A stretch of 64,000 nucleotides of DNA from Marine Group III euryarchaeote CG-Epi1 (GTDB taxonomy: Archaea > Thermoplasmatota > Poseidoniia > MGIII > CG-Epi1). The stretch covers positions 3,340 to 67,339 of the forward strand of contig MIZA01000001.1 in NCBI GenBank assembly GCA_001875345.1, in the 5' to 3' direction. The notes under the pieces were generated by a model. It saw only the letters and a program-made list of their open reading frames with translations, had not been told where the DNA came from and made no database searches. Numbering within the stretch: position 1 is the stretch's first letter; each line of letters begins with the position of its first letter. Shown in pieces: positions 8,958 to 61,688 of the stretch. Both the position numbers and the translations under genes were made by a program.

Positions 8958-9584
8958 CTATTTGGTTTTAAGATCTCTTCTGTATCCCTCTCTATCACCT
9001 AAAAGATTATTATCTAAGGAACTATGATAAATTATCTCGCCTGTTTGTTTCTTGGCTTCAATAACATCTAAAATAGGCATGGTTTCTAGAAAAAGAGTAT
9101 ATCCATAATTAAGAGCCTTTAGATAAACATCTTCAACTTCTTCGAAATCAGGATAAATTGAAAATCTTACCTGAGATACAATAGGGCCATCATCAATCCC
9201 TGGTGTTATTTCATGAATTGTAACACCATGCTCCTGTCTTTTATCCTTTAAAGCCCAATTTATCGGCCTCATTCCTCTATAAAGTGGCAGAGGTGAATTA
9301 TGAAGATTAAGGATTCTTACGCATTTTTCTATGAAATCATTTTTAACAATTTTGTCATAGAAACAAGAAAAAGCTAAATCTATTTTCTTATCTTTAGGTA
9401 AATCTCTGTAATTCCCACTTTTTACATAATCTATTTGGTTTACTTCACACCAATCTACCAGAGATTCTGTCCAATGGGGCTCAGGAATTACTGGAACAAC
9501 ATATTTTAAGTTCTCATGTTTTTTAAACCATTCACATATTTTTATACATAAATCTCCTTTACCTAAAACTACTACATTTTTCAT
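8958..9584 (-). CDS. Formyltransferase (sugar N-formyltransferase / Fmt N-domain type)
   Basis: LNLHNSPLPLYRGMRPINWAL matches HxSLLPxxRG with the Asn-x-His pair, and GIDDGPIV supplies the catalytic Asp. The protein has only the N-terminal catalytic domain (208 aa). Confidence 0.7.
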   Translation of the reverse strand: MKNVVVLGKGDLCIKICEWFKKHENLKYVVPVIPEPHWTESLVDWCEVNQIDYVKSGNYRDLPKDKKIDLAFSCFYDKIVKNDFIEKCVRILNLHNSPLPLYRGMRPINWALKDKRQEHGVTIHEITPGIDDGPIVSQVRFSIYPDFEEVEDVYLKALNYGYTLFLETMPILDVIEAKKQTGEIIYHSSLDNNLLGDREGYRRDLKTK

Positions 9585-25087: not shown

Positions 25088-25089
25088 AT

Positions 25090-49004: not shown

Positions 49005-49721
49005 TCAGTCTACGTAGTGCTCGTATTCTTGATTTTCAAGCATCAGTATGGCTTTCTTTTCAACTTCTGAATCATATCTGAAAACTGGATTAGGGCTTTC
49101 ACCTTGAGGCATTCGTAGGTCATCTAATTTATTATCTGAAAAAGCTCTAACAGCTTCCACCATTAAATTTGAAGCCACGACTGAAGTTTTGTAGCATAAA
49201 TCATGATAATCATCTCCTCTTTTAACTTCTATTTCTCTCTTCCCAACTAAATCTCCTGCATCAATGTCTGTAGAGCAGAAATGACAACTGCTACCTATTT
49301 TTATTCCTTCATGAACGCTCCAAGCTGGAGATGCTGAACCTCTGCACTCAGGCAACAATCCTGGATGTGAGTTTAAGACACCGCCTTTGTTTCCACCGTA
49401 TTCCAATATTTTACCTCTAATTATTCTAGTACCGCCGAATACAATCAAGTCTGGATCAACATTTTCAATGTGCTCCATGCAATGCTCATCATTGTGAATT
49501 GGCACCTGCACAAAGGGAATATTATGCTTTTCAATTTGTGATTTCATAGTTGGAGCTAGTGGATTGGAGCCAAGTCTAAATTCAAACTTTTCCCTCTCTG
49601 TATTCCCACCATCTGATTTCTCCTCAATGATTAAAGAAGGAACAAAGCCTGAATCTATTAACTGGCAAAGCATTTCTCTGCCCCAAGGATGTTCAGTGAT
49701 AGAAAAAAATACAAATTTCAT
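49005..49721 (-). CDS. Formyltransferase-fold protein (Formyl_trans_N-like)
   Basis: VLNSHPGLLPECRGSASPAW matches N-x-H-P-x-LLP-x-x-RG, and DIDAGDLV supplies the catalytic Asp. There is no Fmt C-terminal domain. Confidence 0.6.
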   Translation of the reverse strand: MKFVFFSITEHPWGREMLCQLIDSGFVPSLIIEEKSDGGNTEREKFEFRLGSNPLAPTMKSQIEKHNIPFVQVPIHNDEHCMEHIENVDPDLIVFGGTRIIRGKILEYGGNKGGVLNSHPGLLPECRGSASPAWSVHEGIKIGSSCHFCSTDIDAGDLVGKREIEVKRGDDYHDLCYKTSVVASNLMVEAVRAFSDNKLDDLRMPQGESPNPVFRYDSEVEKKAILMLENQEYEHYVD

Positions 49722-50089
49722 TTTTGTGCAACCACCTTAAATTCTACTGAAATGGGAGTAGGTAAAGAGCCTACTTCAATGGTAGTTCTAGTAACTTCAA
49801 ATCCATCAAGATATTCTGCATAAATTTGATTAAACCTTGAAAAATCATCTTTCATATTCGTTAAAAAAACCATTATATCTACTACGTTTGACATAGACAA
49901 ATTAGCGGCTTCCAAAATAGCTTTTACATTACTAAAAACTGCATGTGTTTGGTCTTCGATTCCCGCTGGAATTTCGTCAGTCTCAGGATGTCTTGGACCC
50001 ACTCCAGATAGAAACACCAAATCGCCAGCTTCTTTAGCGTGAACATATTTTCCCACTGGTTTTGCTGCTTTGTCAGTATTAATCGCCAT
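49718..50089 (-). CDS. RidA/YjgF-family (2-aminomuconate-deaminase-like) protein
   Basis: GDLVFLSGVGPR...IEDQTHAVFSNVKAILEAA...VVDIMVFLTNM...RTTIEVGSLP is the canonical RidA pattern. Confidence 0.8.
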   Translation of the reverse strand: MAINTDKAAKPVGKYVHAKEAGDLVFLSGVGPRHPETDEIPAGIEDQTHAVFSNVKAILEAANLSMSNVVDIMVFLTNMKDDFSRFNQIYAEYLDGFEVTRTTIEVGSLPTPISVEFKVVAQK

Positions 50090-51038
50090 CTCTTTCCTCT
50101 AATGGGCCCATTCCAGGTTGATCATAGAAATCTAAAACTTCCCTATCTCCTTTATAGAATTCAGGATCATCTTCATCATACTCGAGATCTCCTGCAGTAT
50201 CTTCTGCTGGGGTTAATGTTACAACTGCTGCACCTGTTCCACAGATGGGCTCATAAGCTAAAACATTCCCATCGTATAAATTATTTTGACCCATAATAGA
50301 AGCCATAATCCAAAATGGTTTAAAACTTACAACTTTTGGAACTCTTGCTTCGTTATGGAATTGTCTAGATAACTGAGAAACATCTTCTAACCTTCCTTTT
50401 TCTAAATATTCAAGGAATTTTGAATTCCATTCATGATCTTTGAGTGAATGAATTCTATCTTCCTTAGGGTCTATCTCTACAGTATGCAACCTATTTGACA
50501 AAGCTGAAACAACAACTACTGCAGCTTTTTTGCCACTAGCATCAATAGCATCTCGTACTGATTTGCCTAAAACTATACTCTCTGCCCGATTTGCATACAT
50601 ATTACTTGATACAATTATGGCAGGTAATTTATTTTCTGGATTTAATAATTTGAGAGCTACAATTGAGCCAGTATCTATTGGAAATCCATAATAAGAAACT
50701 GTACGGGCATGTAAACCACGCTCTTTACACTTAGTTACAGCTAATTCTGCAAATTCCGGATCCATGCGAAATTTATAATCTATACTGCCCAAGTCATGGA
50801 ATTCTTCGTCAACATAGGTCCATTCAGGTTCAGGATATGCTTGAATTTGGTGACCTAAAATTGAAGGCCAAAAAGTACTGTATAGTACTAAAATTTCAGC
50901 CCCACTTTCTTCAAGTTCTACTCTAGCTTTTTCATAAGCATCACGAACTCTTTGCCATCCTTCATTTTTTTCAGGACAAAGAAGTGGATGAGGCAGGCCT
51001 GGAACTAAAATTCCTTTACAGACGTTATCATCTCTCAT
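50079..51038 (-). CDS. Class III (LigB-type) extradiol dioxygenase subunit, AmnA/AmnB-like
   Basis: The N-terminal GILVPGLPHPLL resembles the LigB-family aPHpP start. It is a paralogue of the upstream gene, which it overlaps by 4 nt. Confidence 0.55.
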   Translation of the reverse strand: MRDDNVCKGILVPGLPHPLLCPEKNEGWQRVRDAYEKARVELEESGAEILVLYSTFWPSILGHQIQAYPEPEWTYVDEEFHDLGSIDYKFRMDPEFAELAVTKCKERGLHARTVSYYGFPIDTGSIVALKLLNPENKLPAIIVSSNMYANRAESIVLGKSVRDAIDASGKKAAVVVVSALSNRLHTVEIDPKEDRIHSLKDHEWNSKFLEYLEKGRLEDVSQLSRQFHNEARVPKVVSFKPFWIMASIMGQNNLYDGNVLAYEPICGTGAAVVTLTPAEDTAGDLEYDEDDPEFYKGDREVLDFYDQPGMGPLEERDGD

Positions 51039-51928
51039 ATCTTGGCCTTTTTAGGATCCCAACCGATTATTGCATTGCCAGTGCCAATTACAGTTCCATA
51101 AGCATGTACTGTAGCCTTGTAATCTGGAAAATCTAATGCACTCATTAACCAAGTCAAACAACCCGCTTCAGTTTCCGCTACAGTTTGCTCAGTGAAATCA
51201 GGCATCAAATCAATTAATTCTTTAGTTTTACCTTCTTTCATTAGATTTATCATTTTCATATCCCAAAGATATTGATTATGATTAGTTATATGCTCCTTAC
51301 TCATGTCTTCAGGAATTTCAGGCTCTGTGGTAAAATGTCGATGAGATAATGAATTACTTGAAAGTAGTAAGGCTTTCTTACCTGAAGCTTCAACGGCTCT
51401 TCGGGTTGCTTTCCCTAATTTTATCATATTAGCTTGCATTAATTCTGAATTAAAATAGAATTTCGAACGATTTGATGAAATGCAAACTATTGGTTTATCC
51501 CACTTCGGATTGACTAAATGACCGCTGGTTATAGTACCGTAATCTATTCTAAAATCTGGATTTTCCATCATCTTCACTAATAGGCCTTCTTCTGCGGCAC
51601 TGTCGTGAATGGCCTTAGACAATTCAACATCTACAGTTAAGTCATAATTATATCTAAATATGTTTGGAAATATAGGATCTACTGATAGTGATTTGAATTT
51701 CTCAACTCCTAGGAAATGAGTACCTACAAATGTCGCCCAGTGGGGTGTGTGAATTATTATAACATCGTAATCTTTTTCAGATAAACTATCTCTTAATCTT
51801 TCATATCCCCAACGAAGTTCTTCCCATCCACCTTCTGCGGTAGCTTCGTTTTGAGGTGGGTTCTCTGCATAAACAAGGTGCGGAGGATGTGGTGCTAGGG
51901 CTCCCATTACAATTTCCCCTTTAGACAT
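51035..51928 (-). CDS. Class III (LigB-type) extradiol dioxygenase subunit, AmnB-like
   Basis: GALAPHPPHLV and IIIHTPHW are LigB-family metal-site motifs. Length is about 300 aa. Confidence 0.6.
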   Translation of the reverse strand: MSKGEIVMGALAPHPPHLVYAENPPQNEATAEGGWEELRWGYERLRDSLSEKDYDVIIIHTPHWATFVGTHFLGVEKFKSLSVDPIFPNIFRYNYDLTVDVELSKAIHDSAAEEGLLVKMMENPDFRIDYGTITSGHLVNPKWDKPIVCISSNRSKFYFNSELMQANMIKLGKATRRAVEASGKKALLLSSNSLSHRHFTTEPEIPEDMSKEHITNHNQYLWDMKMINLMKEGKTKELIDLMPDFTEQTVAETEAGCLTWLMSALDFPDYKATVHAYGTVIGTGNAIIGWDPKKAKI

Positions 51929-51964
51929 GTTTCTACAATTAAACCCAGTTATAAGACAATTAGC

Positions 51965-52933
51965 TTAGTTGATATTGAACAAAAACCAACGTAATATTTG
52001 CTTTTCTAGCCAATAGGATGTATCTCTGGAAACAAAAGCTACATGTCCGCCTTTTTCTGTTGTAAAAAAATTTAGAAAAGGGGAAGATAATTCCTTATCG
52101 GAAGGAAAGCAATCTGGAGGCGATAGTGGATCATCAAGACTATTTAACATGAAAGTGGGGTGATCTATTTCTGTCAAATGTTTTGCTGAGCTAATTTCTT
52201 CATAGAAACTTGAGGCGTCAGGAAAATTAAAATATGGTGCTGTTATTTTCTCATCTAATTCATACAATGTCTTAGATTCAAAGAAAGCATCGTAATCTAC
52301 TTCATCGGGAAATTTTGCTTTCTTAAGTTTATATTTCTCTATAAGTGAGGATACAAAAGATTGCTCATACACTCTTGAAAAACCCTTTGCCATAGCTGTA
52401 ACTCCGGGTTCAATTCTATAATTACCTGAAATTAATGCTGAAGCTAATATTCTTGGCAGATTAGATTTAGGCCTTGAAATGCAATTAGCTAAAATATTAG
52501 CTCCAAAACTATAGCCCACTAAAAAAATAGGCCGATTTTGGTCCTGGTTGCGTACGTACCATATTAATTGTTCTAAATCTTCAGTTTTTCCTGCATTATA
52601 TGTGTAAAATGTATCATTAATAACTCCGGAGCAAGAACGATAATTAATTGCATAGCCGCTCCAACCTAATCTTTGAATTATAGTCATTAATCTAGTAATG
52701 TGAGTTGAGTTTGAGCTCCCTTCAAAACCATGACACGCTATTACTGCTGGACCTTTACCATCAACAATATCAACATCGAAAAAATCGTTATCTGGAGTTT
52801 TCAGCCTTTTTCTACGATAATTTATCTTCTCTCCTTTAAGAAAAATACCCGCATAGATTGATTGCGCATGTGGGTTTCTTAGATGATACGGTAGGCGAAA
52901 TGAAGATAGTTTAAAATTTGCTTTTGATATCAT
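51965..52933 (-). CDS. Alpha/beta hydrolase (YheT/ABHD3-like)
   Basis: VIACHGFEGSSNSTHI and the nucleophile elbow LVGYSFGAN. Confidence 0.65.
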   Translation of the reverse strand: MISKANFKLSSFRLPYHLRNPHAQSIYAGIFLKGEKINYRRKRLKTPDNDFFDVDIVDGKGPAVIACHGFEGSSNSTHITRLMTIIQRLGWSGYAINYRSCSGVINDTFYTYNAGKTEDLEQLIWYVRNQDQNRPIFLVGYSFGANILANCISRPKSNLPRILASALISGNYRIEPGVTAMAKGFSRVYEQSFVSSLIEKYKLKKAKFPDEVDYDAFFESKTLYELDEKITAPYFNFPDASSFYEEISSAKHLTEIDHPTFMLNSLDDPLSPPDCFPSDKELSSPFLNFFTTEKGGHVAFVSRDTSYWLEKQILRWFLFNIN

Positions 52934-52946
52934 TTCTGTAAATTAT

Positions 52947-54380
52947 TTACTCTTTGACACAAATATTTACAGGCTGTGAGAAAAAACTTAGGCTCCAACG
53001 TCCTCCTTCTGTTCCAACACCACTATCCTTTACACCACCGAACGGAACTCGTAAATCTCGATGAAGCCAAGTATTGACCCAAACCATCCCTGTTTCGATC
53101 TTTTCAGCTAATTCTTTTCCTCTTGTAGAATCTGAAGTCCAGACCGAACCTGCTAGCCCGTAATCTGTACAATTTGCCATTTCAATAGCTTCATCATCTG
53201 TTTTAAATTGGTGCAGAGTAACAACGGGGCCAAATATTTCCTCATTAGAAGTTCTACTCTGATAATCAAGATTTGATACTACTGTTGGTTCCAAAAAGGC
53301 CCCTTTATCAAATGGAGAATCTAAATTCGGTATTTTTCCTCCACACAATATTTCTCCGCCCTCTCTTTGGGCTAGATGAATGTAAGATTCCACTTTGTCT
53401 CTATGAGAAAAAGATACTAAAGCACCTAAATCGGAATCGTCTGATGAGGGGTCTCCCACTTTCATGCTCTTAATGTAAGTTACAAATTTTTCTACAAATT
53501 CGTCCCAAATTTTATGTGAAATTAGAATTCGACTACCACATAAGCAAACTTGGCCTTGATTAAGAAAACCCGATCTTGCAATTTCCGGAATAGCTCTATC
53601 AATGTTTACATCATCTAAAACAATTGTTGCATTCTTACCACCCAACTCTAAACTTAATTTTTTGAACATAGGGGCTGCTGTTTCAGCAACTTTCTTACCT
53701 GTAATTGTTCCTCCTGTAAAAGAAATCAAATTAACTTTCGGATGTGATACTATTGTTTGACCGGCTTCATGTCCTAAACCATGAACTATGTTAACAACAC
53801 CCTGCGGCAAGCCTATTTCGTGTATAACTTCTGCAAGAAGATTTGCCGTTAACGGCGTAAGTTCAGAAGGTTTTGCGACTACTGTATTGCCCATAACAAT
53901 CGCGGGTGCTATTTTCCACGATAGAAGATATAAGGGAAGATTCCAAGGAGTTATCAAACCTGCCACTCCCACAGGTTTGTAAATTACGTGATTAGTTGCA
54001 TCATCCATCTCAAACGTTTCACCAACAAAGTCTTTACTGAATTCTGCAAAAAAACGGAAATTGGCAACAGACCTTGATGCATCCACCGCCCTTGCAAGCT
54101 TAATTGGTTTTCCAGTATCTAATGACTCTAGTTTAGCAATCTCTTCTGCACGTGATTCTAATGCATCTGCTATCTTTCCTAGCCAAACTCTTCTATCTTC
54201 TAAATTCAAATTACTCCAATATTCGCGAGCATTGTCTGCAGCCAATACTGCTTTTTGGACATCATCTGGTTTCGAACGTGGAATATTGGCTATAATTTTC
54301 CCTGTAGCTGGATTAATATCTTCAATAGTTTCTTCAGTGCTTACAAAATTACCATTTACGTAATTTTGAACCTTAATCAT
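52947..54380 (-). CDS. NAD-dependent aldehyde dehydrogenase (2-amino/2-hydroxymuconate-semialdehyde dehydrogenase-like)
   Basis: LELGGKNA contains the catalytic Glu, GQVCLCGSRILI contains the catalytic Cys, and EEIFGPV is also typical. Length is 477 aa. Confidence 0.8.
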   Translation of the reverse strand: MIKVQNYVNGNFVSTEETIEDINPATGKIIANIPRSKPDDVQKAVLAADNAREYWSNLNLEDRRVWLGKIADALESRAEEIAKLESLDTGKPIKLARAVDASRSVANFRFFAEFSKDFVGETFEMDDATNHVIYKPVGVAGLITPWNLPLYLLSWKIAPAIVMGNTVVAKPSELTPLTANLLAEVIHEIGLPQGVVNIVHGLGHEAGQTIVSHPKVNLISFTGGTITGKKVAETAAPMFKKLSLELGGKNATIVLDDVNIDRAIPEIARSGFLNQGQVCLCGSRILISHKIWDEFVEKFVTYIKSMKVGDPSSDDSDLGALVSFSHRDKVESYIHLAQREGGEILCGGKIPNLDSPFDKGAFLEPTVVSNLDYQSRTSNEEIFGPVVTLHQFKTDDEAIEMANCTDYGLAGSVWTSDSTRGKELAEKIETGMVWVNTWLHRDLRVPFGGVKDSGVGTEGGRWSLSFFSQPVNICVKE

Positions 54381-55477
54381 TCTGTACTCTTATAGTCTTC
54401 AGGATTGAAATACCAGCGATCATTATCTGGATCCCATTCATCCCAAGTTGGAATGTCCTTTAACTTTTCTAAATATTTTTTAGGTACGACACCCGGGACT
54501 AGGAATGCTTTTTGTCTTCTGAGAGGGTAAGGATTTCTTAATTCCATGCCTAAAACACCCAAAATTCCTCTTGCAACATACCATGTAGCTTGTGGATTCC
54601 AACCGTGTGCAATTTTTACAACAACACCCAATCCTTCGGGATAATCATCATGAATTATAGATAAGCCAAGAAGTCCGTCTGCACCTTCTTTTGCGATTAC
54701 ATTACCCTTGCATGTTTTAATTATTGTAGTATCTAGTCTGTTAAACCCTCCGACTAAATCTGGATTTGTAACCATTGCTTCCCATATCCAATTTTCATCT
54801 TTCTCTTTAGCTAAACCAGCATAACATGCAGCCAATTCGTTTACAGTATTTGACAAAGTAGGAAATCCATCCCCATCACGCGCAATTCTCTGAGGATTCC
54901 AATCTTTACCCAAAAAGTGTCTTATCTCTTCTAAAAAAGCAAAGAAAAATGGATGGCTAGGTAAGGTGTAACCTGCTCTATTCCAACCTTTCCTTCTACA
55001 ACCCAAAAGAATAGCGGCATGTTGACCTGATGAGTTAGAATACCAGCGTCTTGCTCTTCGTACTTGTCTGCCAAATTGAACTAACGGCAAATCTAAAGGT
55101 GTCTGCATTAATCCCCAATCCGATTGTGGAAGTAGCGACTGTGCAGCTTTAACATGCTCAGAAGTTCCATTGTGACTCGCTACTGATATTGCTTTTTGAT
55201 CCCAATTTAAATCAGATAATTCTTCACTAAAAACCTTTAACATTAATGGCTTCATCATAGAACGGCCATAACAGAGAACATTTCCACCAAAACTATGAAT
55301 GTTTTTGCCTCCACTATACCAGGCAACTGCTCCATGTATTGTTGTCTCGCTAACTCCGTTTCTCCTGTAATCAACTAAAGGTTCCCATTCTACGTCTCTT
55401 CCTGTAGGAATATCTCCTTCAGTGTCTCCTAAAGGACTACTTGGGTACAACTCTTTGATATCTGTAGGGTGACTCAT
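54377..55477 (-). CDS. Asparaginase-II-family (Rhizobium AnsA-type) amidohydrolase-like protein
   Basis: RSMMKPLMLKV and SVASHNGTSEHVKAAQSLL parallel the RSaaKPlQA / aSHsGe..H motifs of that family. Confidence 0.45.
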   Translation of the reverse strand: MSHPTDIKELYPSSPLGDTEGDIPTGRDVEWEPLVDYRRNGVSETTIHGAVAWYSGGKNIHSFGGNVLCYGRSMMKPLMLKVFSEELSDLNWDQKAISVASHNGTSEHVKAAQSLLPQSDWGLMQTPLDLPLVQFGRQVRRARRWYSNSSGQHAAILLGCRRKGWNRAGYTLPSHPFFFAFLEEIRHFLGKDWNPQRIARDGDGFPTLSNTVNELAACYAGLAKEKDENWIWEAMVTNPDLVGGFNRLDTTIIKTCKGNVIAKEGADGLLGLSIIHDDYPEGLGVVVKIAHGWNPQATWYVARGILGVLGMELRNPYPLRRQKAFLVPGVVPKKYLEKLKDIPTWDEWDPDNDRWYFNPEDYKSTE

Positions 55478-56715
55478 TTTGTTAATTCCTCAACACGAGG
55501 TACAACCTTCTTCATGAAAGCTTCCATGTTTCTTATTACTCTAGGGCTGTCATGATTAAAAAAATCAAACCAAGTCATTATGCAATCGTCAGAGTGGAAG
55601 CGTTCTGCTATTTGTTGTGCGACCTGTTCTACATTTCCAATTACAGAATTATCTGCCGCCTTTGATACCTTGTTAGGGTCAATTGTTCCTTCTAATGCAC
55701 CCCAATATGAACTCAATGAATTTTCAGCTTCTTGCTTAGCGGCCTCGGTCTTTTCAGTTTCAGATAAATTTGGCTCATCGTTGACAAATATCATCAACGT
55801 TCTAGGCATATAATTTCGCTTCCAATTTCCGCCATTGGAATTATAATGATTAGCCATTCTATCATGTGTTGCTTCAATTACTTCAGGCGGAGTAATTGAT
55901 AAATTGAAAACTTTAACTGGGCTAATTTTGTTAACTTCTTTTTGTAAATTGCCGTCATGAGAGCCCAGTATCAAATCTAGTAACTCTCTATTCCAAGACT
56001 GTGGAATATTCTTGACATCCTCAAAGACATATCTATTTGGAATAGGTATTTCATTAGGAAATTCTGAAATGGAATCTCGCTTCATTAATGCTTCTTGTAC
56101 TCGTACCCAATCATCGTCGCTACGAAAATTAGACCTTGTCAGAATTGTTTTTCTTATATCTTTACTATTGACTATTTCACCATTAAGTAATTTTAAGAAA
56201 ATTTCAGAAGCTTCAGCAAATATCTGACCTCTCAAAGCAGGCCAAGCAGCTTCCTCAACGATATCTCTTGGAACAATACCATATGGTCTAGCCATAAACT
56301 CAAACCTACCTGCTGAAAAGCCTATTCTCAATTTCCTTTTTTCATCTTTATTGAGTCCATGTAATGCTAAAAAAGCTCCAACCCTCTCAGCAATTCCTAC
56401 AGGACCTCCATGAGTTAAAAGGCTCATTACTGCAGAACCTACATGAATATTATTAGTTCTAGCAAACATTAAATGTGCCAATTGAAAGAAATCTGTACAA
56501 AGACCAACTTCTCCTTGCCAATGTGGAACTACGGGCTGCTTATTGGCTTTCTGAACTTCTGTCGATAAATGGGCCTGAGCAACCCAAGCGGTACCAAAGC
56601 CTAACTGATCTGCCGATTCTAATTGCTCAAAAAAATTCGAATACATCGTATCTTCATCAGGAGTTTCTCCGTCTACAGGAGTCTGCGAAATTGAAAGAAA
56701 TATGTCAAAATCCAT
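55474..56715 (-). CDS. Luciferase-like (LLM-class) flavin-dependent oxidoreductase
   Basis: The N-terminal MDFDIFLSISQTP...ADQLGFGTAWVAQAHLS is typical of LLM TIM-barrel monooxygenases. Length is 413 aa. Confidence 0.55.
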   Translation of the reverse strand: MDFDIFLSISQTPVDGETPDEDTMYSNFFEQLESADQLGFGTAWVAQAHLSTEVQKANKQPVVPHWQGEVGLCTDFFQLAHLMFARTNNIHVGSAVMSLLTHGGPVGIAERVGAFLALHGLNKDEKRKLRIGFSAGRFEFMARPYGIVPRDIVEEAAWPALRGQIFAEASEIFLKLLNGEIVNSKDIRKTILTRSNFRSDDDWVRVQEALMKRDSISEFPNEIPIPNRYVFEDVKNIPQSWNRELLDLILGSHDGNLQKEVNKISPVKVFNLSITPPEVIEATHDRMANHYNSNGGNWKRNYMPRTLMIFVNDEPNLSETEKTEAAKQEAENSLSSYWGALEGTIDPNKVSKAADNSVIGNVEQVAQQIAERFHSDDCIMTWFDFFNHDSPRVIRNMEAFMKKVVPRVEELTK

Positions 56716-57452
56716 TATATTGAACCTGTCCTTCCACCATCTACTGGAATACTGGTTCCTCTCACAAAACTAGCCGCAGGAGATGAAAGAAAGGCAACTA
56801 CTTGGCCCAATTCGGAAGGTGATGCGAGACGCCCTTCTGGAACTGTGCTTAACCAAGAATTTTCTACTTCTTCTTCGCTTATTCCCTTCTGCTTTGAAAG
56901 TGTTTCTTTTAATTCTGTTAGTCTTTCAGTATCTGTGAAGCCCGGTAATACATTGTTGATAGTAATTTGTGGAGGTAATTCTTTGGACATTGTTTTAGAC
57001 CAAGAAGCCATAGCGCCCCTAATGGTATTACTGACTCCTAAGCCAGGAATAGGTTCCTTAACTGAAGTAGAAATAATATTAACTATTCTTCCATAATTTA
57101 ATGATTTCATGCCTTCAAAAAGTAATTGAACTAAAGTCTGTGAAGCTAAGACATGTCTAAGAAAGGCCTTTTCAAAATCATACGGCTGAGCGCTAATAAG
57201 CGGACCCGACGGAGGACCTCCTGAATTATTTACCAAAATGTGAAACGGACCATTAGCCTCAATTTCCTCAGTGACTAAGGATTTTAAGGAATCCAAATCT
57301 TCGAGATCGCAAGAAATATTGCCAGATCCAGAGGCGCTTCTAGATAGAATTACCACATCCGCCCCATTCTCTCTGAGTGCATTTACAGTAGCTTTTCCAA
57401 TACCACTTGTACCTCCACAAACTAGTGCTCTTTTACCTTTTAAGTCAATCAA
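56715..57452 (-). CDS. Short-chain dehydrogenase/reductase
   Basis: TTG start. LVCGGTSGIGKAT is the TGxxxGxG motif and NNSGG is also present. Length is 245 aa. Confidence 0.8.
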   Translation of the reverse strand: MIDLKGKRALVCGGTSGIGKATVNALRENGADVVILSRSASGSGNISCDLEDLDSLKSLVTEEIEANGPFHILVNNSGGPPSGPLISAQPYDFEKAFLRHVLASQTLVQLLFEGMKSLNYGRIVNIISTSVKEPIPGLGVSNTIRGAMASWSKTMSKELPPQITINNVLPGFTDTERLTELKETLSKQKGISEEEVENSWLSTVPEGRLASPSELGQVVAFLSSPAASFVRGTSIPVDGGRTGSI

Positions 57453-58385
57453 TTATTCACCTCGAAACTCGTAAAACTCTTTATTTTTGAGTGTTGGTAA
57501 TGCATCTTTTTTAATTAAAATACTTCGAACTGCCCACAAATCAACAAAGACTCTGTATTTAGTTGTCATATCTAGATAATCAACACCTGATGAACCGCCG
57601 GTACCAATCCGTCTTCCTATCATACGCTCAACCATTCTTGCATGTGAAGTACGCCAAAGAATCATAGCTTGCTCTAATTCAATTAAAGTCGAAATTAACT
57701 TACGAGGCCAAGACAAAAGAGGAAGCTCACGGTATGACTCAATGAATACCAAACCGGCTCGTCTTCTACGTAATGATTTATCTTCATCAAAAAAGCTAAC
57801 TACTTCTTCGTTTGTATCTGGATATAATTTCTTGTGGGCTGACAAGTAATCACTAATAAACTTGTCTACTTGTTTTTCATCTCCTTCTGAGGCGTAAACT
57901 GATCCTTGTATGGGAGTTCTCTCAAGCCAGTCGCATGTCGCATCATACAATGATTTGCCACTTTCAGGTTTTCCAACCAATTTACCATCAATCCACTTTG
58001 AACCCATCAAAGCTTCCATTTCTCTCATTTGAAAAGATTCAAAACCTGAGGCTGTACCTAATTCATCTCTAAAATTGAGGAAATCTTGAGGTTCTAAGGT
58101 CTCCATAACACGCCATTGCTGAGACATAAGTTTGAATGTCTCAATCACTCTTTCCATATGATGTACGGCCTGAGGTAGTTTTGTTTCCTCAACGTAATCT
58201 GATGATAAAATATCACTTGTACATTTCAACTCATTTATTACTAATTTAAACCATAACTCAAAATTTTGATGAACTAGAATAAAATGCAATTCATCATTAC
58301 TAATTTTACGAGTTTCTCCCTCGACACCAGTCTGCAATTTGAGCAATTCCTCTAATCTCAGATATTCTGAATATGTTGGAGACAT
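57453..58385 (-). CDS. kynA: Tryptophan 2,3-dioxygenase
   Basis: YSEYLRLEELLKLQ...NDELHFILVHQNFELWFKLVINEL is the conserved TDO N-terminal signature. Confidence 0.8.
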   Translation of the reverse strand: MSPTYSEYLRLEELLKLQTGVEGETRKISNDELHFILVHQNFELWFKLVINELKCTSDILSSDYVEETKLPQAVHHMERVIETFKLMSQQWRVMETLEPQDFLNFRDELGTASGFESFQMREMEALMGSKWIDGKLVGKPESGKSLYDATCDWLERTPIQGSVYASEGDEKQVDKFISDYLSAHKKLYPDTNEEVVSFFDEDKSLRRRRAGLVFIESYRELPLLSWPRKLISTLIELEQAMILWRTSHARMVERMIGRRIGTGGSSGVDYLDMTTKYRVFVDLWAVRSILIKKDALPTLKNKEFYEFRGE

Positions 58386-58402
58386 TAATGCCCAATAAGG
58401 AT

Positions 58403-58416
58403 TGTATATTATATCG
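58403..58416. promoter_or_regulatory. Shared central TATA element of a divergent leaderless pair (kynA / esterase)
   Basis: tgtatattatatcg is centred about 24-25 nt from both start codons, 58385 (-) and 58434 (+). Confidence 0.35.
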
Positions 58417-58433
58417 ACTGCGTTTGGGGTACT

Positions 58434-58922
58434 ATGTTAATCTGGGCGCACGGATTGTGGGGCAGTCCGAATGGAAGTAAGGTTACAGCTATAAGAGAAA
58501 GCGGAATTAAAGTCAATTCACCTGATTTTAATAATATGGAATTAGATGAAAGAGTGGATATACTAAATGAGCTTGTTTCTAAAGAAGAAGTTGTACTTGC
58601 AGGATCAAGTTACGGTGGTTTAGCATGTGCATTGGTTGCTCAACAACAACCTAAACAAGTAAAGGGTATGTTGCTTCTGGCTCCAGCTTTGCATTTGCCT
58701 GAAGCTCCTAATAATGCTCCTGAAAATTTAGTTGCACCAAAGGATTTACCAATTACCATAATACATTCCACTACTGATGAAATAGTACCAATTAGTGCAA
58801 GTCAGAATTATGTGGACCGCTCTGAAAATAAAATTAACTTAATTGAAGTGGAAGATTCCCACGTGCTGGAAAACTCCATTGAGCTTATAATCTCTGAAAC
58901 TAATAAATTACTTAATCGCTGA
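58434..58922 (+). CDS. Minimal alpha/beta-fold serine esterase (YqiA-like)
   Basis: A Ser-Asp-His triad is visible: LAGSSYGG, STTDEIVP and EDSHVL. Length is 162 aa. Confidence 0.5.
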   Translation: MLIWAHGLWGSPNGSKVTAIRESGIKVNSPDFNNMELDERVDILNELVSKEEVVLAGSSYGGLACALVAQQQPKQVKGMLLLAPALHLPEAPNNAPENLVAPKDLPITIIHSTTDEIVPISASQNYVDRSENKINLIEVEDSHVLENSIELIISETNKLLNR

Positions 58923-58933
58923 AATACTTTACT

Positions 58934-61507
58934 TTACTGACTGGATTCTTCTTCAGGAGGTGCTTCTCCTTCACCCTCTTCAGTTGAGCCTGAATCTTCA
59001 GAATCTTCCTTTTCAGATGATTCCTCTTCTATTTCTTCATAGTAATAATATGGTTCGTAGACTGGTTTATTATTTGAAGGCAACTCTGTGAAACCTGTTT
59101 TCTCCATAGTTGCTACATTGTGTGCTGTAACTGCTTTTTCACTAATTGCGTAAATGTAATCTCCTCCGCCCATGAATATGCTTCGCTTGATATCTGGACT
59201 ATCCCATGAATATCTTGAACCGTAGTATGAAGAATGATCTATGTTTTCACTATATATCTCTAAAGATTTACCTGGTGTGGCATTAATTAACATTAACTTA
59301 GAAATATACTCGTATCCATAATAATGGTACGTCTTGCCATCTTCTTCTACCGTATCTTGATACCATCGACTAGTGGACATTGGAATGGCTAATAATCCAT
59401 CATCTTCCCAATATTGGAAAGCTTTATGCTCGTAAGTAGCTTCACTATGTGAATAGGACCACCCATTTTCCCCATTTGGTGCTGGGTTTAGCTTTAAGGA
59501 GCTTTCAAGAATTGGATTTGAAAAATCACTAACATCAAAGAATGATATCTGAGTAACTCCCCAATCTAATCCATCATCATCACCAGCGATTCCTATTGTA
59601 AGAAGATGTGTGTCTCCTACCGGATGTATGTATGTAGATACTCCTGGAACTTTTAATTCTCCAATTACTCTAGGATTAGTTGGTTCACTTAAATCAATGG
59701 TCCATAATGGATCAATATTTCTGAATGTTACAATGTATGCTTTATCTCCAACAAATCTTGCTGACCAAATACTCTCATCTGGTGCAATATCTCCTACTTT
59801 TCCTATTACTTCGTATTCTGTTTTATCTGCATTTAATCCTAAAACAAATACATGACTTAACATTGGTTCTGGATTATCCATCCACCATCTTCCCCACTGC
59901 CCTGTTGTAGAACAAACTCGAATATTTCCATCATGCTCAGACAAAGAAAACTGATCTTGAATTGTACCATTTATTCTTCCACTAGCAATGTAATCTGTTT
60001 GACCAGGATTAGATATATCAAAAACATGAAGGTTTGTCATTTCTTGATAATTTGATTCTTCTTCTCCCCAAAACCACCACGAACTCTGGGAAGCTTCAGC
60101 CATTATCATTACATCTCCTGAAGCATAAACTGTAGCCCAATTACTCAATATGTGATCTGCATTGAAACTAAAATTTTCTTCTAATAAATCAAGAGTCATA
60201 ATTGAAGTAATGCCTTGACCTGTACTATCTGATGCTGTAGCAAAATTTTGACAATTGCCATCTCCAGATTCAGTATACTTGTGTATTGTAATATTATCTC
60301 CTGATTTTTCATAGATGCGAGGTAAAAGATCATCTAAAGGAGTTTGATCAATAACCTTATCGTTGTATTCAATTGTTTCATTCATTACTTCCATCCAAAT
60401 TTGTTCTCTCTTAGAGCTATCCCAATCAAGCTCCCAATATGTTCGATAATCTGAAAAATCTAACCATGTCTTTAATCCATCGATTTCCATCCAACCATAT
60501 GAGACCATGCGAACTGTACCTCCAGATTCACGTGCTGTCTGATAGTCTCCTTCAATGTATAATTCCTTAGAAATCTGTGGTGAACTTCTATTAGTTAAAT
60601 CTAAAACTGTTAATTTGGTGAATGACGTGGTCCTATAATAATGGCCGTAGTCATAATCCATAATAATCTCTTCAGATTCTTTAGAACTGTCAATAGAAAT
60701 TGGTGCTTTTCTTTCCTTCTTAACAACATCATCAAGAGGATGTTTTTCTTCATAATAACCATAAATTTGAACGTTAGAATAAACGACTGCTTTCTCATCA
60801 ACTAAAAGCATCTCAGTTGGACGTCCTTCTATAGATATATTTGATAAATAAGATATATTACCTACTTCCGGAATATCAAGAATATGTAATTTACCTGAAG
60901 GATATCTACCATAATCTGAATAACCTTTGTTAATCATGTAAACAAAAGAACCATCCGTTTTAACAAAATCAGCCTCGTCCACTCCTTGTTCTTGATTATT
61001 GGTTCCTGAAAAATCCACTCCCTGCTCACTTCCCGGTGAATTTTTAGGAGAACCTCCTGAGGAAGGTGCTGAATCTGCTGCTGAAGTTGCACCATCCATT
61101 TCCATAACTGCATCATCTACAAACATTATATCGTCTTCAATCCAACCTCCACCATAATAGTAAGAATTAGTACCAAGAGTAACACGCATTTCTTCTTTCA
61201 AGTGCCCTTTCAAATCCATTTCGAGAAAACCACAAGTATCATAAGAAGACAAAGTAGGTGACGAACGTGATCTATCTGATAATATATTCTCAAGATAACT
61301 GGATTGTGAGGAAGTCAAACCATTTGGTGTAAAACTTTCTTCATCCTCAGGAGTATATGATGCAAGTGCTAAAGTTAGAATGACAACTGCAAATACAGCA
61401 AACACACCAGAAGGAATTCCCCCAAAAGGTTCTGGAATTGGGGCACTAGAACCTGATAAAACCTTAGGCTTATTCAACGCTTTTCCAAAAACTTCTATTT
61501 TATCCAT
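58934..61507 (-). CDS. Membrane-anchored beta-propeller-domain (PF09826-like) surface protein with an acidic tail
   Basis: An N-terminal TM (VFAVFAVVILTLALA), then TNNQEQGVDEADFVKTDGSFVYMI (the Beta_propel signature). The C-terminus is EEIEEESSEKEDSEDSGSTEEGEGE. The start is taken at MDKIEV. Confidence 0.6.
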   Translation of the reverse strand: MDKIEVFGKALNKPKVLSGSSAPIPEPFGGIPSGVFAVFAVVILTLALASYTPEDEESFTPNGLTSSQSSYLENILSDRSRSSPTLSSYDTCGFLEMDLKGHLKEEMRVTLGTNSYYYGGGWIEDDIMFVDDAVMEMDGATSAADSAPSSGGSPKNSPGSEQGVDFSGTNNQEQGVDEADFVKTDGSFVYMINKGYSDYGRYPSGKLHILDIPEVGNISYLSNISIEGRPTEMLLVDEKAVVYSNVQIYGYYEEKHPLDDVVKKERKAPISIDSSKESEEIIMDYDYGHYYRTTSFTKLTVLDLTNRSSPQISKELYIEGDYQTARESGGTVRMVSYGWMEIDGLKTWLDFSDYRTYWELDWDSSKREQIWMEVMNETIEYNDKVIDQTPLDDLLPRIYEKSGDNITIHKYTESGDGNCQNFATASDSTGQGITSIMTLDLLEENFSFNADHILSNWATVYASGDVMIMAEASQSSWWFWGEEESNYQEMTNLHVFDISNPGQTDYIASGRINGTIQDQFSLSEHDGNIRVCSTTGQWGRWWMDNPEPMLSHVFVLGLNADKTEYEVIGKVGDIAPDESIWSARFVGDKAYIVTFRNIDPLWTIDLSEPTNPRVIGELKVPGVSTYIHPVGDTHLLTIGIAGDDDGLDWGVTQISFFDVSDFSNPILESSLKLNPAPNGENGWSYSHSEATYEHKAFQYWEDDGLLAIPMSTSRWYQDTVEEDGKTYHYYGYEYISKLMLINATPGKSLEIYSENIDHSSYYGSRYSWDSPDIKRSIFMGGGDYIYAISEKAVTAHNVATMEKTGFTELPSNNKPVYEPYYYYEEIEEESSEKEDSEDSGSTEEGEGEAPPEEESSQ

Positions 61508-61688
61508 CCAAAAAAATACCCTTACCTTTATTTCCATCATCCTTGGAATATGATTCTAATTTTTCGAGACACCTTTTACATGTTACGTGAATTCTGTTTG
61601 CACTTCTCAATTGCTTTAGTTCTCCAGTAGTCAAAGGCCAACCACAGAGGGTCTTGTCTTCAGTACCAAGCATGTGTCTTCTTCTCAT
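61500..61688 (-). CDS. Small Cys/His-containing protein (possible zinc-ribbon-like), hypothetical
   Basis: MRRRHMLGTEDKTLCGWP...RIHVTCKRCLEKL. It has its own TATA box 22 nt upstream, and its stop overlaps the downstream start by 8 nt. Confidence 0.3.
   Translation of the reverse strand: MRRRHMLGTEDKTLCGWPLTTGELKQLRSANRIHVTCKRCLEKLESYSKDDGNKGKGIFLDG

Follow-up and report, generated by a model that had tools for sequence, protein, structure and literature searches.

The stretch of DNA analysed here (the window) comprises 64,000 nucleotides of contig MIZA01000001.1 from the Marine Group III (MGIII) euryarchaeote CG-Epi1 and carries, at positions 49005-58385, ten closely packed minus-strand genes, as determined from the open reading frame (ORF) list and direct reading of the junctions (Table 1). 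Pfam and NCBIfam gave the gene order as tryptophan 2,3-dioxygenase (TDO), short-chain dehydrogenase/reductase (SDR), luciferase-like flavin monooxygenase (LLM), Asparaginase_II (AsnII), aldehyde dehydrogenase (ALDH), YheT-like hydrolase, two LigB-type subunits, RidA, and Formyl_trans_N. The TAA stop codon of TDO directly abuts the TTG start of SDR (gap 0), SDR and LLM share 1 nt at 56715 (TAATG), and 4-nt ATGA overlaps occur at 55474-55477, 54377-54380, 51035-51038, and 49718-49721; AmnA and RidA overlap by 11 nt, and the genes at the two remaining junctions are separated by +13 and +36 nt. Every junction coordinate in a first-pass annotation, made from the sequence alone, was reproduced by the ORF list and direct reading, and its gene order and family calls were all upheld by Pfam, NCBIfam HMM, and PDB searches. 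The TATA-like element lies upstream of TDO inside the divergent spacer, and a T-rich stretch was read directly 3' of the last gene.

Table 1. Genes and candidate promoter of the ten-gene operon, with window coordinates and principal support
Feature	Coordinates	Strand	Support
Tryptophan 2,3-dioxygenase (haem), TDO, first gene	57453..58385	-	Pfam PF03301, 194.9 bits, full length
Non-canonical short-chain dehydrogenase/reductase, SDR	56715..57452	-	Pfam adh_short_C2, 109 bits
Luciferase-like (LLM) flavin monooxygenase	55474..56715	-	Pfam Bac_luciferase, 30.8 bits, N-terminal 112 aa only
Class-3 (Rhizobium etli-type) asparaginase homologue, AsnII	54377..55477	-	Pfam PF06089, 144.9 bits
2-Aminomuconate-6-semialdehyde dehydrogenase (AmnC/AMSDH type), ALDH	52947..54380	-	Best PDB matches AMSDH, 472 bits
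YheT/ABHD-like alpha/beta hydrolase	51965..52933	-	NCBIfam PRK10985, 180 bits, below cutoff
2-Aminophenol 1,6-dioxygenase beta (catalytic) subunit, AmnB	51035..51928	-	380 bits vs CnbCb, full length
2-Aminophenol 1,6-dioxygenase alpha subunit, AmnA	50079..51038	-	155, 144, and 129 bits vs CnbCa/AmnA alpha subunits
RidA-subfamily enamine/imine deaminase	49718..50089	-	TIGR00004, 112.8 bits (cutoff 106.25)
Formyltransferase-fold protein	49005..49721	-	Pfam Formyl_trans_N, 47.4 bits
Divergent intergenic spacer, candidate archaeal promoter of the operon	58386..58433	.	48 nt, TATA-like ATATAATATA, direct reading

Identity of the encoded proteins

The best PDB matches of TDO were the insect and human enzymes (136-153 bits), and conserved in its alignment are the distal His (VHQNFELWF), the FQMR Arg, the proximal His (WRTSHARMVERMIG), and GTGGSSG; its NCBIfam score lies far under the cutoff of the bacterial TDO equivalog (153.6 vs 390.7 bits). 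AmnB also aligned over its full length with the AmnB structure (372 bits) and 7TXY_B (339 bits), retained the Fe ligands His13, His62, and Glu251, and was ~60% identical to enzymes acting on 2-aminophenol and chloro-aminophenol. The LigB pair sided with AmnAB/CnbC rather than with the protocatechuate or gallate dioxygenases, the grouping that the first-pass annotation had named as contrary to its reading; judged by sequence, the pair is a genuine AmnAB, with specificity for 2-aminophenol over 3-hydroxykynurenine or 3-hydroxyanthranilate assumed from the ~60% identity. The ALDH retains equivalents of the substrate-binding Arg120 and Arg464 and of the catalytic Cys302 and Glu268, and its best NCBIfam match was 2-hydroxymuconic semialdehyde dehydrogenase (544 bits, below cutoff). 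RidA is proposed to be a 2-aminomuconate deaminase; the enzyme of that function in Pseudomonas sp. AP-3 is a RidA subfamily member (PMC6742747).

The closest PDB entries to the SDR were uncharacterised SDRs (5VA8, APE0912-type), and its catalytic Tyr-x3-Lys is replaced by Ser141-x3-Arg145, a substitution conserved in 43 orthologues. Of the Amn-containing clusters, 28/29 archaeal and 35/44 bacterial ones have the gene, which is missing both from LLM-AsnII modules without Amn genes and from a sister cluster (L090) that has 4-oxalocrotonate decarboxylase (4-OD) and hydratase genes instead. From this pattern the SDR appears, with some uncertainty, to be a lower-pathway reductase rather than part of the missing middle steps.

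The AF2 model of the LLM protein (pLDDT 85.8) matched FMN-dependent LLM oxygenases of the PDB in Foldseek with TM scores of 0.5-0.64 at 12-17% identity, among them luciferase, SsuD, RutA, and the type II Baeyer-Villiger monooxygenase (BVMO) 3,6-DKCMO, and these matches fail to separate Baeyer-Villiger chemistry from hydroxylation. With only 317 representatives at 50% clustering among 1.84 billion proteins, the LLM belongs, on homology grounds, to a small, distinct, new flavin monooxygenase family. In AsnII, the equivalents of Arg47/Ser48/Lys51, Ser80, Asp187, and Lys263 of the Rhizobium etli enzyme ReAV are invariant, including that of Arg47, which in ReAV anchors the alpha-carboxylate of L-Asn. 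The catalytic set Ser48/Lys51/Ser80/Lys263 is retained while the Zn/leaving-group triad is altered, Cys/Lys/Cys having become Ser/Gln/Asp in the window protein and Cys/Glu/Cys in most orthologues. AsnII is probably not an asparaginase, and this residue pattern leads us to propose a beta-aspartyl aryl ester/anilide hydrolase that would free L-aspartate and 2-aminophenol (or 2-formamidophenol).

Distribution and synteny

All ten genes recur in unchanged order, between the same flanking genes, in the MGIII genome CG-Epi3 (L001; 79-97% amino-acid identity), and a seven-gene core, SDR-LLM-AsnII-ALDH-AmnB-AmnA-RidA, is shared by at least 589 species genomes of MGII archaea, Myxococcota, Planctomycetota, Bdellovibrionota, and proteobacteria. 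Core synteny was kept in 80/80 fetched loci from the two domains of life where the contig was long enough; together with the ten-gene order kept in CG-Epi3, this places the grouping far beyond chance. The co-occurrence in related marine archaea that had been put forward as a check was thus observed, for all ten genes in CG-Epi3 and for the core in MGII. The cluster is not confined to archaea, and marine bacteria carry it at least as commonly. MGII versions have an amino-acid permease at the end of the cluster and are interrupted by inserted membrane-protein genes.

The order in bacterial orthologous clusters is TDO-SDR-LLM-AsnII-ALDH-AmnB-AmnA-RidA-KynB, with TDO upstream and the kynurenine formamidase KynB (TIGR03035, 194.5 bits, full length) downstream, whereas archaea have the formyltransferase-fold gene instead of KynB. 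KynB was found in 20/28 bacterial clusters and 1/18 archaeal clusters, the formyltransferase-fold gene in 24/25 MGII clusters and 0/37 bacterial clusters. The best PDB match of the formyltransferase-fold protein was Met-tRNA formyltransferase (55.6 bits), and 23 sequences share its Asn117/His119/Asp154 triad without exception; we propose it as the archaeal counterpart of bacterial KynB, acting as a putative deformylase or formyl-to-folate transferase, although the mutual exclusivity matches the archaea/bacteria split exactly and could therefore be a product of lineage history and not of functional replacement. The window and CG-Epi3 alone carry the YheT-like hydrolase (0/26 MGII and 0/35 bacterial loci), which is regarded as an MGIII-specific accessory gene outside the core, possibly a formamidase or esterase.

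LLM and AsnII stood side by side in 31/31 archaeal and 36/43 bacterial loci, and the adjacency persists at 31-35% LLM identity (tblastn; 34-38% in the phmmer table) in contexts without Amn genes. AsnII::KynB fusions form ~90 protein clusters; the fusion adjoins both LLM and TDO in L086, LLM in L090, and TDO in L089, with the second partner 2-5 kb off in the latter two loci, and KynB::RidA fusions also exist. In L090, LLM-AsnII::KynB comes immediately after a complete amn-type operon (AmnB-AmnA-RidA-ALDH-hydratase-4-OD), and TDO is close by. This context supports LLM and AsnII as one module that would carry the missing middle steps, and because LLM-AsnII(-KynB)-TDO modules occur without nearby Amn genes, the pair is predicted to make a finished product alone.

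Proposed route from tryptophan through 2-aminophenol

No kynureninase, kynurenine 3-monooxygenase (KMO), cupin 3-hydroxyanthranilate dioxygenase (3-HAO), or ACMS decarboxylase (ACMSD) was found within the ten-gene operon, in 20 further window ORFs chosen by size, or among the annotated recurrent neighbour families of the 80 orthologous loci; the HMM search thus agrees with the earlier statement that the operon lacks these enzymes. The non-canonical passage from tryptophan to aminomuconate suggested at that stage is strengthened by the bacterial clusters bracketed by TDO and KynB and by the AsnII::KynB and KynB::RidA fusions. The set of genes placed in the missing middle has narrowed, with LLM and AsnII (the amidohydrolase) kept, the SDR transferred to the lower pathway, and the YheT-like hydrolase set aside as non-core. 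We judge the chance to be slightly better than even that the operon degrades L-tryptophan to 2-aminomuconate and beyond via 2-aminophenol, bypassing KMO, kynureninase, 3-HAO, and ACMSD.

TDO, whose family is clear, would open the indole ring to give N-formylkynurenine, and the link to kynurenine comes from the presence of TDO and KynB in bacterial orthologous clusters. TDO adjoins the cluster in just 2/22 MGII and 15/36 bacterial loci, so that many genomes must have the gene for the entry step at another place, unless kynurenine itself is the incoming substrate. A pathway of the same kind with TDO optional and a substrate other than free L-tryptophan (imported kynurenine, substituted tryptophan, or another 2-aminoaryl ketone) would suit this patchy adjacency, the low equivalog score of the MGIII TDO, and the possible occurrence of kynurenine and related compounds in marine dissolved organic matter, yet it is improbable given that TDO retains the residues binding the L-Trp carboxylate and ammonium, that many bacteria have the operon flanked by TDO and KynB, and that TDO lies beside or near AsnII::KynB fusions.

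In the route from free L-tryptophan that we favour, the formyl group would be removed by KynB in bacteria and by the formyltransferase-fold protein in archaea, possibly also by the YheT-like hydrolase in MGIII, either before the LLM step or after AsnII hydrolysis. The LLM, a proposed kynurenine or N-formylkynurenine Baeyer-Villiger monooxygenase, would then insert an oxygen atom into the bond that joins the side-chain carbonyl to the aromatic ring, with aryl migration, yielding the 2-aminophenyl (or 2-formamidophenyl) ester of the L-aspartate beta-carboxyl; the free-amine ester would rearrange to N4-(2-hydroxyphenyl)-asparagine. Such chemistry fits the LLM fold, which is common to FMN-dependent oxygenases including type II BVMOs. 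No flavin reductase gene was found in the cluster. AsnII would hydrolyse the beta-aspartyl compound to L-aspartate and 2-aminophenol, and the beta-aspartyl aryl ester was the one simple oxidation product of kynurenine that we could identify as suited both to an asparaginase-like hydrolase and to release of an AmnAB substrate.

The same gene content would equally serve a scheme in which the LLM, though not homologous to KMO, takes its place as kynurenine 3-hydroxylase, AmnAB cleaves 3-hydroxykynurenine (or 3-hydroxyanthranilate after a hydrolytic step), and AsnII trims the amide or side chain later; both compounds are o-aminophenols, LLM-family enzymes can hydroxylate, and the Foldseek matches do not discriminate. 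We nevertheless think this scheme unlikely: AmnB resembles enzymes for 2-aminophenol and chloro-aminophenol at the identity given above, neither the operon nor the annotated recurrent neighbours contained an ACMS decarboxylase to handle a carboxylated product, LLM-AsnII(-KynB)-TDO modules occur without nearby Amn genes, and AsnII keeps the residue that binds the alpha-carboxylate of an Asn/Asp-like acyl group. We also know of no precedent for kynureninase-type C-C cleavage by a beta-lactamase-fold serine hydrolase.

Following Baeyer-Villiger oxidation and AsnII hydrolysis, the strong family assignments suggest that AmnAB would cleave 2-aminophenol to 2-aminomuconate semialdehyde, the AMSDH-type ALDH would oxidise this to 2-aminomuconate, and RidA would deaminate the latter to 4-oxalocrotonate. 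The SDR may act reductively next, for example towards 2-oxoadipate, and might in that role replace the 4-oxalocrotonate decarboxylase/hydratase pair of the sister cluster L090. It is very unlikely that separate functions are merely juxtaposed here, with TDO and a deformylase making kynurenine for another purpose, amn degrading environmental aminophenols, and LLM, AsnII, and SDR serving to convert some unrelated compound, for instance an asparagine derivative or a sulfonate: the rarity of TDO adjacency in MGII, the split MGII clusters, and two loci (L014, L022) with LLM-ALDH-KynB and neither AsnII nor AmnAB nearby are in keeping with it, but synteny of the core extends over two domains and, within bacteria, at least five phyla, both kinds of KynB fusion exist, the LLM of distant relatives adjoins TDO and PrnB-type haem enzymes, and the window junctions are translationally coupled. 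We found no published description of a kynurenine-to-2-aminophenol shortcut, and the operon would represent an undescribed tryptophan catabolism in which the textbook enzymes give way to a monooxygenase from a new flavin-dependent family and to an asparaginase-like hydrolase.

Comparison with known systems

The two-subunit LigB-type AmnAB, 2-aminomuconate-semialdehyde dehydrogenase, and RidA-type deaminase are common to the window operon and to the 2-aminophenol meta-cleavage pathway of the amn (Pseudomonas sp. AP-3) and cnb/nbz (chloronitrobenzene and nitrobenzene degraders) systems, of which the sister cluster L090 retains the 4-oxalocrotonate decarboxylase and hydratase. In those systems 2-aminophenol comes from nitroaromatic or aniline xenobiotics, whereas tryptophan is the proposed source here; instead of decarboxylase, hydratase, aldolase, and acetaldehyde dehydrogenase, the window operon has the non-canonical SDR, and the hosts of the cluster are uncultured marine archaea and bacteria. 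One bacterial kynurenine pathway runs through kynA-kynB-kynU to anthranilate, and Colabroy and Begley reportedly described in 2005 the full bacterial 3-hydroxyanthranilate route to 2-aminomuconate. Shared with these pathways are TDO entry, KynB (in bacteria), and convergence on 2-aminomuconate semialdehyde, 2-aminomuconate, and deamination; the window operon differs in having the LLM monooxygenase and class-3 asparaginase homologue in the middle position, and by the proposed route the side chain would leave as aspartate, not alanine, with no quinolinate/NAD branch point formed.

AsnII shares its Pfam family (145 bits) with ReAV/ReAIV of Rhizobium etli and keeps the Arg47, Ser48-Lys51, and Ser80-Lys263 equivalents, but not the ReAV Zn site Cys135/Lys138/Cys189. 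It also differs in that its gene follows that of the LLM and that the protein is often fused to kynurenine formamidase. The Rut pyrimidine pathway uses a similar set of families (RutA LLM, RutB amidohydrolase, RutC RidA-family, RutD alpha/beta hydrolase), and RutA is among the Foldseek matches of the LLM; the window operon differs in its amidohydrolase family, in being without the RutF reductase, in its aromatic ring-cleavage context, and in a RidA that scores higher as generic RidA (112.8 bits) than as RutC (47 bits). The 2,5-/3,6-diketocamphane monooxygenases have the TIM-barrel LLM fold of the window protein (4UWM, 5AEC, TM ~0.57, Foldseek) at only 12% identity, with luciferases, SsuD, and RutA matching equally or better, and the LLM is a possible member of the type II BVMO subgroup. 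Diketocamphane monooxygenases need a flavin reductase encoded away from the oxygenase gene.

The 4-hydroxyacetophenone pathway, encoded by the hap genes of Pseudomonas fluorescens ACB, follows the same logic as that proposed here, an aryl ketone being converted to a Baeyer-Villiger aryl ester and then by hydrolysis to a phenol, with ring cleavage by a two-subunit dioxygenase and oxidation by a semialdehyde dehydrogenase to follow in both. The hap oxygenase, HAPMO, is a type I BVMO with a single FAD/NADPH component, and the hap esterase is an ordinary one, whereas the window operon would rely on an LLM-type oxygenase and an asparaginase-II-family hydrolase and would release an amino acid as the acyl product.

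Operon architecture and the enzymes at its two ends

The run of ten consecutive minus-strand ORFs described in the first-pass annotation was reproduced at the same coordinates in our ORF list, and every family named there was upheld by Pfam and NCBIfam. Direct reading of the sequence placed the TAA stop of the tryptophan 2,3-dioxygenase gene (TDO) against the TTG start of the SDR gene, with a 1-nt overlap (TAATG) between SDR and the luciferase-like flavin monooxygenase (LLM). ATGA 4-nt overlaps form four further junctions, AmnA and RidA overlap by 11 nt, and the two other gene pairs are separated by 13 and 36 nt. Between TDO and the divergently transcribed gene of a small hydrolase lies a 48-nt spacer carrying a ATATAATATA element; 3' of the last operon gene there is a T-rich stretch. 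Scans of the window for tRNA genes and Rfam families gave no matches.

Features of the window, with the profile matched by each operon product (AsnII, homologue of class-3, Rhizobium etli-type asparaginases; ABH, YheT-like hydrolase; FT, formyltransferase-fold protein)
Feature	Position (strand)	Profile or description	Score
Ten-gene operon	49005-58385 (-)	TDO, SDR, LLM, AsnII, ALDH, ABH, AmnB, AmnA, RidA, FT	
TDO		Trp_dioxygenase	195 bits
SDR		adh_short_C2	109 bits
LLM	55474-56715 (-)	Bac_luciferase, at the N-terminus only	31 bits
AsnII	54377-55477 (-)	Asparaginase_II	145 bits
ALDH		Aldedh	559 bits
ABH		PRK10985	180 bits
AmnB	51035-51928 (-)	LigB	90 bits
AmnA	50079-51038 (-)	LigB	70 bits
RidA		TIGR00004	113 bits, above cutoff
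FT	49005-49721 (-)	Formyl_trans_N	47 bits
Small hydrolase	58434-58922 (+)	alpha/beta hydrolase, 162 aa, truncated-looking	
Beta_propel protein	58934-61540 (-)	868 aa, acidic C-terminal tail	
2-Oxoacid:ferredoxin oxidoreductase	23300-26115	two subunits, POR/POR_N + TPP_enzyme_C	
Co-directional gene run	251-23038 (-)	GC 28-32%	
Second Formyl_trans_N gene	8958-9584	within the co-directional run	
CMAS-like genes	34818-39150	two methyltransferases adjoining a flavin amine oxidase	

TDO matched PF03301 over profile positions 16-346, that is, at full length (194.9 bits; cutoff 34.9), and alignment to a solved insect TDO indicated that the distal and proximal His, the substrate-carboxylate Arg and the GTGGSSG loop are kept. 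The protein missed the bacterial equivalog TIGR03036 (153.6 bits vs a cutoff of 390.7) and lay nearer to eukaryote-type enzymes, scoring 153 bits to the best solved insect enzyme vs ~106 bits for Xanthomonas TDO. At the other end of the route, two adjacent paralogous LigB-type subunits are encoded, the beta subunit being nearest to solved AmnB/CnbCb. AmnB matched the beta subunits of solved 2-amino-5-chlorophenol/2-aminophenol 1,6-dioxygenases at full length with ~60% identity (380, 372 and 339 bits) and conserves the Fe(II) ligands His13, His62 and Glu251 in alignment to 3VSG_B, while AmnA matched the alpha subunits at 155, 144 and 129 bits. Since both products match solved 2-aminophenol dioxygenase subunits, and neither protocatechuate nor gallate dioxygenases occurred among their PDB matches, the original assignment of the pair to AmnAB stands, and it is a predicted 2-aminophenol 1,6-dioxygenase.

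The nearest solved relatives of the semialdehyde dehydrogenase (ALDH) were 2-aminomuconate-6-semialdehyde dehydrogenases (4NPI and 4I1W; 472 bits), and the alignment retained equivalents of Cys302, Glu268, Arg120 and Arg464, which in the P. fluorescens enzyme we take to be catalytic (Cys302/Glu268) and carboxylate-binding (Arg120/Arg464). RidA passed the curated cutoff of TIGR00004 (112.8 bits vs 106.25), and its gene fits the pathway because Pseudomonas sp. AP-3 has a RidA-subfamily protein as its 2-aminomuconate deaminase (PMC6742747). As the first-pass annotation had claimed, profile searches with Pfam found kynureninase, kynurenine 3-monooxygenase (KMO), cupin 3-HAO and ACMSD nowhere among the ten operon products. 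Neither these four enzymes nor lower meta-cleavage enzymes were found by Pfam in 20 other window ORFs picked by size or among the recurrent neighbour families annotated across 80 loci, and the window held no cyclase-family gene for kynurenine formamidase (KynB).

Elsewhere in the window, the long co-directional gene run resembles a cluster for cell-surface glycans or nucleotide sugars (LicD, two DegT/DnrJ aminotransferases, the second Formyl_trans_N protein, a HAD hydrolase, DUF354, a GT4 glycosyltransferase and a GFO/IDH/MocA oxidoreductase), and its GC contrast with the rest of the window (35-39%) suggests a variable genomic island. The CMAS (cyclopropane-fatty-acyl-phospholipid-synthase-like) genes are unexpected in an archaeal host with isoprenoid lipids.

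The LLM-AsnII pair

LLM exceeded the Bac_luciferase cutoff through its N-terminus only (30.8 vs 27.9 bits), and its AF2 model (pLDDT 85.8) has the TIM-barrel LLM fold: 85 PDB matches were obtained at E<=0.001, and all 50 listed were LLM-fold proteins. Luciferases, SsuD, RutA, RslO1 and the type II Baeyer-Villiger enzyme 3,6-diketocamphane monooxygenase were matched with TM scores of 0.5-0.64 at 12-17% identity; the diketocamphane monooxygenases 4UWM and 5AEC gave TM ~0.57 at 12% identity, with luciferase, SsuD and RutA matching no worse. In one relative, a giant protein of 1501 aa (P0126), an LLM-family domain at the N-terminus precedes domains of a class-I glutamine amidotransferase and an ApbE flavin transferase, a fusion that hints at the use of FMN by LLM, possibly with covalent attachment in some lineages.

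In the R. etli class 3 L-asparaginase (ReAV), Arg47 anchors L-Asn by its alpha-carboxylate, Ser48 acts as the nucleophile, Lys51, Ser80 and Lys263 are essential, and the Zn bound by Cys135, Lys138 and Cys189 may aid substrate recognition (PMC12292245). The AsnII counterparts of the first five residues, the Pattern II set (R72, S73, K76, S101 and K263) were invariant in the window protein and 12 orthologues, and the metal triad was altered relative to ReAV, reading Cys/Glu/Cys in most orthologues. Retention of the five catalytic/aspartyl residues together with a changed metal triad argues that the acyl (aspartyl) side of the active site is conserved and the leaving-group side is different. AsnII of the window and its orthologue in a Bdellovibrionales MAG (L055) share a coupled swap of the triad to Ser/Gln/Asp, which suggests that a metal-free variant arose or was transferred together.

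An Asparaginase_II gene still follows LLM in its distant relatives (31-35% identity by tblastn, 34-38% by phmmer), in contexts without Amn genes. At one such locus (L086), the gene downstream of LLM encodes a continuous 530-aa fusion of AsnII (residues 6-318) with KynB (residues 317-522; 42% identity to bacterial KynB), and TDO adjoins it. AsnII::KynB fusions (PF06089 + PF04199) make up ~90 protein clusters with 39-51% mutual identity, several of them annotated solely as arylformamidase or asparaginase, and are a family rather than an artefact. KynB::RidA fusions occur too (P0365 and P0367), and locus L091 carries a separate AsnII gene in addition. The L090 locus has the order AmnB-AmnA-RidA-ALDH-(2-oxopent-4-enoate hydratase-like)-(4-oxalocrotonate decarboxylase-like)-LLM-AsnII::KynB with TDO nearby, and in a Bdellovibrionaceae genome (L089) two FAA_hydrolase genes and LLM lie a few kb from AsnII::KynB-TDO. 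Taken together, these contexts, fusions and three loci show a gene organization that places TDO, KynB, LLM and AsnII in one predicted pathway, the product of which would enter the amn-type 2-aminophenol pathway.

The genomic context of another LLM relative, P0129 (37.7% identity, tblastn), was uninformative. At the L088 locus (GCA_053747735.1, 1-12400), a 46%-identical relative adjoins a PrnB-family haem enzyme in a neighbourhood with TrpA/TrpB, TDO, two BMC shell proteins, an ornithine-cyclodeaminase-like gene and a LysE exporter, and this locus may serve a different pathway from tryptophan in which a member of the same LLM family takes part.

Distribution and accessory genes

The LLM family is small and distinct: clustering of 1.84 billion proteins at 50% leaves only 317 representatives of it, and metagenomes contain >5000 clusters at 90% identity; an alignment scan covering one genome per species found LLM in at least 589 species genomes. 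Near-identical relatives are assigned in their annotations to Candidatus Poseidoniia and to Marine Group III (MGIII), and MGIII CG-Epi3 carries the same ten genes with the same order and flanking genes at 79-97% identity. The best 80 loci came from MGII archaea (Thalassarchaeaceae, Poseidoniales), Myxococcota, Planctomycetota, Bdellovibrionales and assorted proteobacterial MAGs. The check on gene-order co-occurrence proposed in the first-pass annotation was thus borne out by the CG-Epi3 locus and by a conserved core, SDR-LLM-AsnII-ALDH-AmnB-AmnA-RidA, that recurs in MGII and bacterial loci. Three spurious antisense ORF families (f5, f14 and f20), produced by crude ORF calling in high-GC loci, were left out.

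Occurrence of cluster genes after mapping of the ten window proteins onto the 80 best loci (denominators, loci long enough to show the gene)
Gene	Archaea (MGII etc.)	Bacteria
AsnII	31/31	36/43
ALDH	28/28	37/39
SDR	28/29	35/44
AmnB	20/26	27/37
RidA	19/21	21/31
KynB	1/18	20/28
FT	24/25	0/37
Adjacent TDO	2/22	15/36
YheT-like hydrolase	0/26	0/35

In bacterial loci TDO stands directly upstream of SDR, and a gene of ~208 aa after RidA encodes the cyclase-family arylformamidase KynB (Pfam, 68 bits), which matched TIGR03035 at full length with 194.5 bits, below the cutoff of 223. MGII clusters end with an amino-acid permease gene. Across L003-L082, the similarity of the window proteins to orthologues from Myxococcota, Planctomycetota and Bdellovibrionota was on a par with that to MGII sequences (median AsnII identity 70.5% and 66.3%, respectively), which indicates a probable transfer of the whole cluster between domains. 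Some contigs were binned as Rickettsiales, Enterobacterales or Paceibacteria, probably through mis-binning, and some bacterial loci (L067 and L076) carry a CDO_I cysteine-dioxygenase-like cupin (~197 aa) and the conserved families f43 and f44 upstream of TDO.

Archaeal clusters have FT in place of KynB. The FT catalytic triad Asn117/His119/Asp154 was invariant in 23 sequences, and the fmt and PurN equivalog cutoffs were not reached; we propose that FT strips the formyl group, either hydrolysing it off or passing it to tetrahydrofolate. Because the exchange of FT for KynB coincides with the archaea/bacteria split, we regard it as suggestive only. The YheT-like hydrolase is an MGIII-only addition. 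The small divergent hydrolase and the Beta_propel gene are both kept beside the operon in CG-Epi3, and the former might contribute to the pathway.

The SDR matched Pfam SDR models and has Ser141 and Arg145 in place of the catalytic Tyr-x3-Lys, a substitution conserved in 43 orthologues and resembling a group of uncharacterised SDRs. It accompanies Amn-containing clusters, whereas neither the minimal LLM-AsnII modules nor L090, which has a 4-oxalocrotonate decarboxylase and a hydratase, include it, a pattern that points to a probable role in the lower pathway, for example the reduction of 4-oxalocrotonate or 2-aminomuconate towards 2-oxoadipate. A metazoan 2-aminomuconate reductase of a different protein family, recently reported (bioRxiv 10.64898/2026.06.05.730449), provides a precedent for a reductive fate of 2-aminomuconate. 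The same pattern led us to drop, as the leading idea, the SDR as flavin reductase for LLM: no SDR occurs in the Amn-less modules or in L090, and a supply of reduced flavin by the SDR is unlikely. If the SDR branch makes 2-oxoadipate, the 2-oxoacid:ferredoxin oxidoreductase of the window might oxidise it, which is pure speculation.

Proposed chemistry and comparison with a known pathway

We consider it highly probable that the operon converts tryptophan or kynurenine to 2-aminomuconate via an o-aminophenol made by LLM and AsnII. The specific Baeyer-Villiger/aspartate mechanism is a more tentative proposal, with at best nearly even chances of being correct. LLM would oxygenate the aryl ketone of kynurenine or N-formylkynurenine in a Baeyer-Villiger reaction, and aryl migration would give the beta-(2-aminophenyl) ester of L-aspartate. 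Where the o-amino group is free, this ester would rearrange to N4-(2-hydroxyphenyl)-asparagine, and AsnII would hydrolyse the beta-aspartyl product to L-aspartate and 2-aminophenol, the substrate of AmnAB. Were LLM to act on N-formylkynurenine and the formyl group to leave last, the AsnII::KynB fusion would link consecutive steps; either order is possible.

Oxygenation with aryl migration appears to be the simplest scheme that meets all constraints. Alkyl migration would instead lead through O-anthraniloyl-serine to anthranilate, which is not a substrate of AmnAB, and the acyl group would not be aspartyl. A Rut-like pathway was dismissed, as RidA is not of the RutC type and the amidohydrolase belongs to a different family.

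Tryptophan catabolism is considered well mapped. Full-text searches found no published description of the cluster or the reaction within the searchable literature, and we know of no description of the LLM-AsnII gene combination or its reaction. Our joint reading, which we advance with reserve as possible but somewhat doubtful in its entirety, is a widespread, unrecognised marine tryptophan route in which LLM, a new FMN-dependent family acting by Baeyer-Villiger oxygenation, and AsnII, a re-purposed class-3 asparaginase, yield L-aspartate and 2-aminophenol, FT replaces kynurenine formamidase in archaea, possibly passing the formyl group to folate, and the Tyr-less SDR opens a reductive lower branch that takes the place of 4-oxalocrotonate decarboxylase/hydratase. 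If true, two enzymes (LLM and AsnII) would stand in for four (KMO, kynureninase, 3-HAO and ACMSD), and conversion of kynurenine to 2-aminophenol and aspartate would add two enzyme activities and a new branch to tryptophan catabolism. It would also assign a function to an orphan LLM family and to one subgroup of the class-3 asparaginases, a family that is poorly understood, and would account for AmnAB-type genes, usually read as xenobiotic-degradation genes, being common in pristine seawater. The cluster would represent cross-domain transfer of an entire pathway. Its hosts (MGII, MGIII and marine Myxococcota, Planctomycetota and Bdellovibrionota) rank with the most numerous heterotrophs of the sea that are uncultured, and given these numbers and the abundance of the genes, the route would bear on oceanic recycling of aromatic amino-acid N and C. 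The logic of the proposed LLM-AsnII-AmnAB-ALDH sequence parallels that of the 4-hydroxyacetophenone pathway, in which a Baeyer-Villiger monooxygenase, an esterase, a two-subunit ring-cleavage dioxygenase and a semialdehyde dehydrogenase take part.
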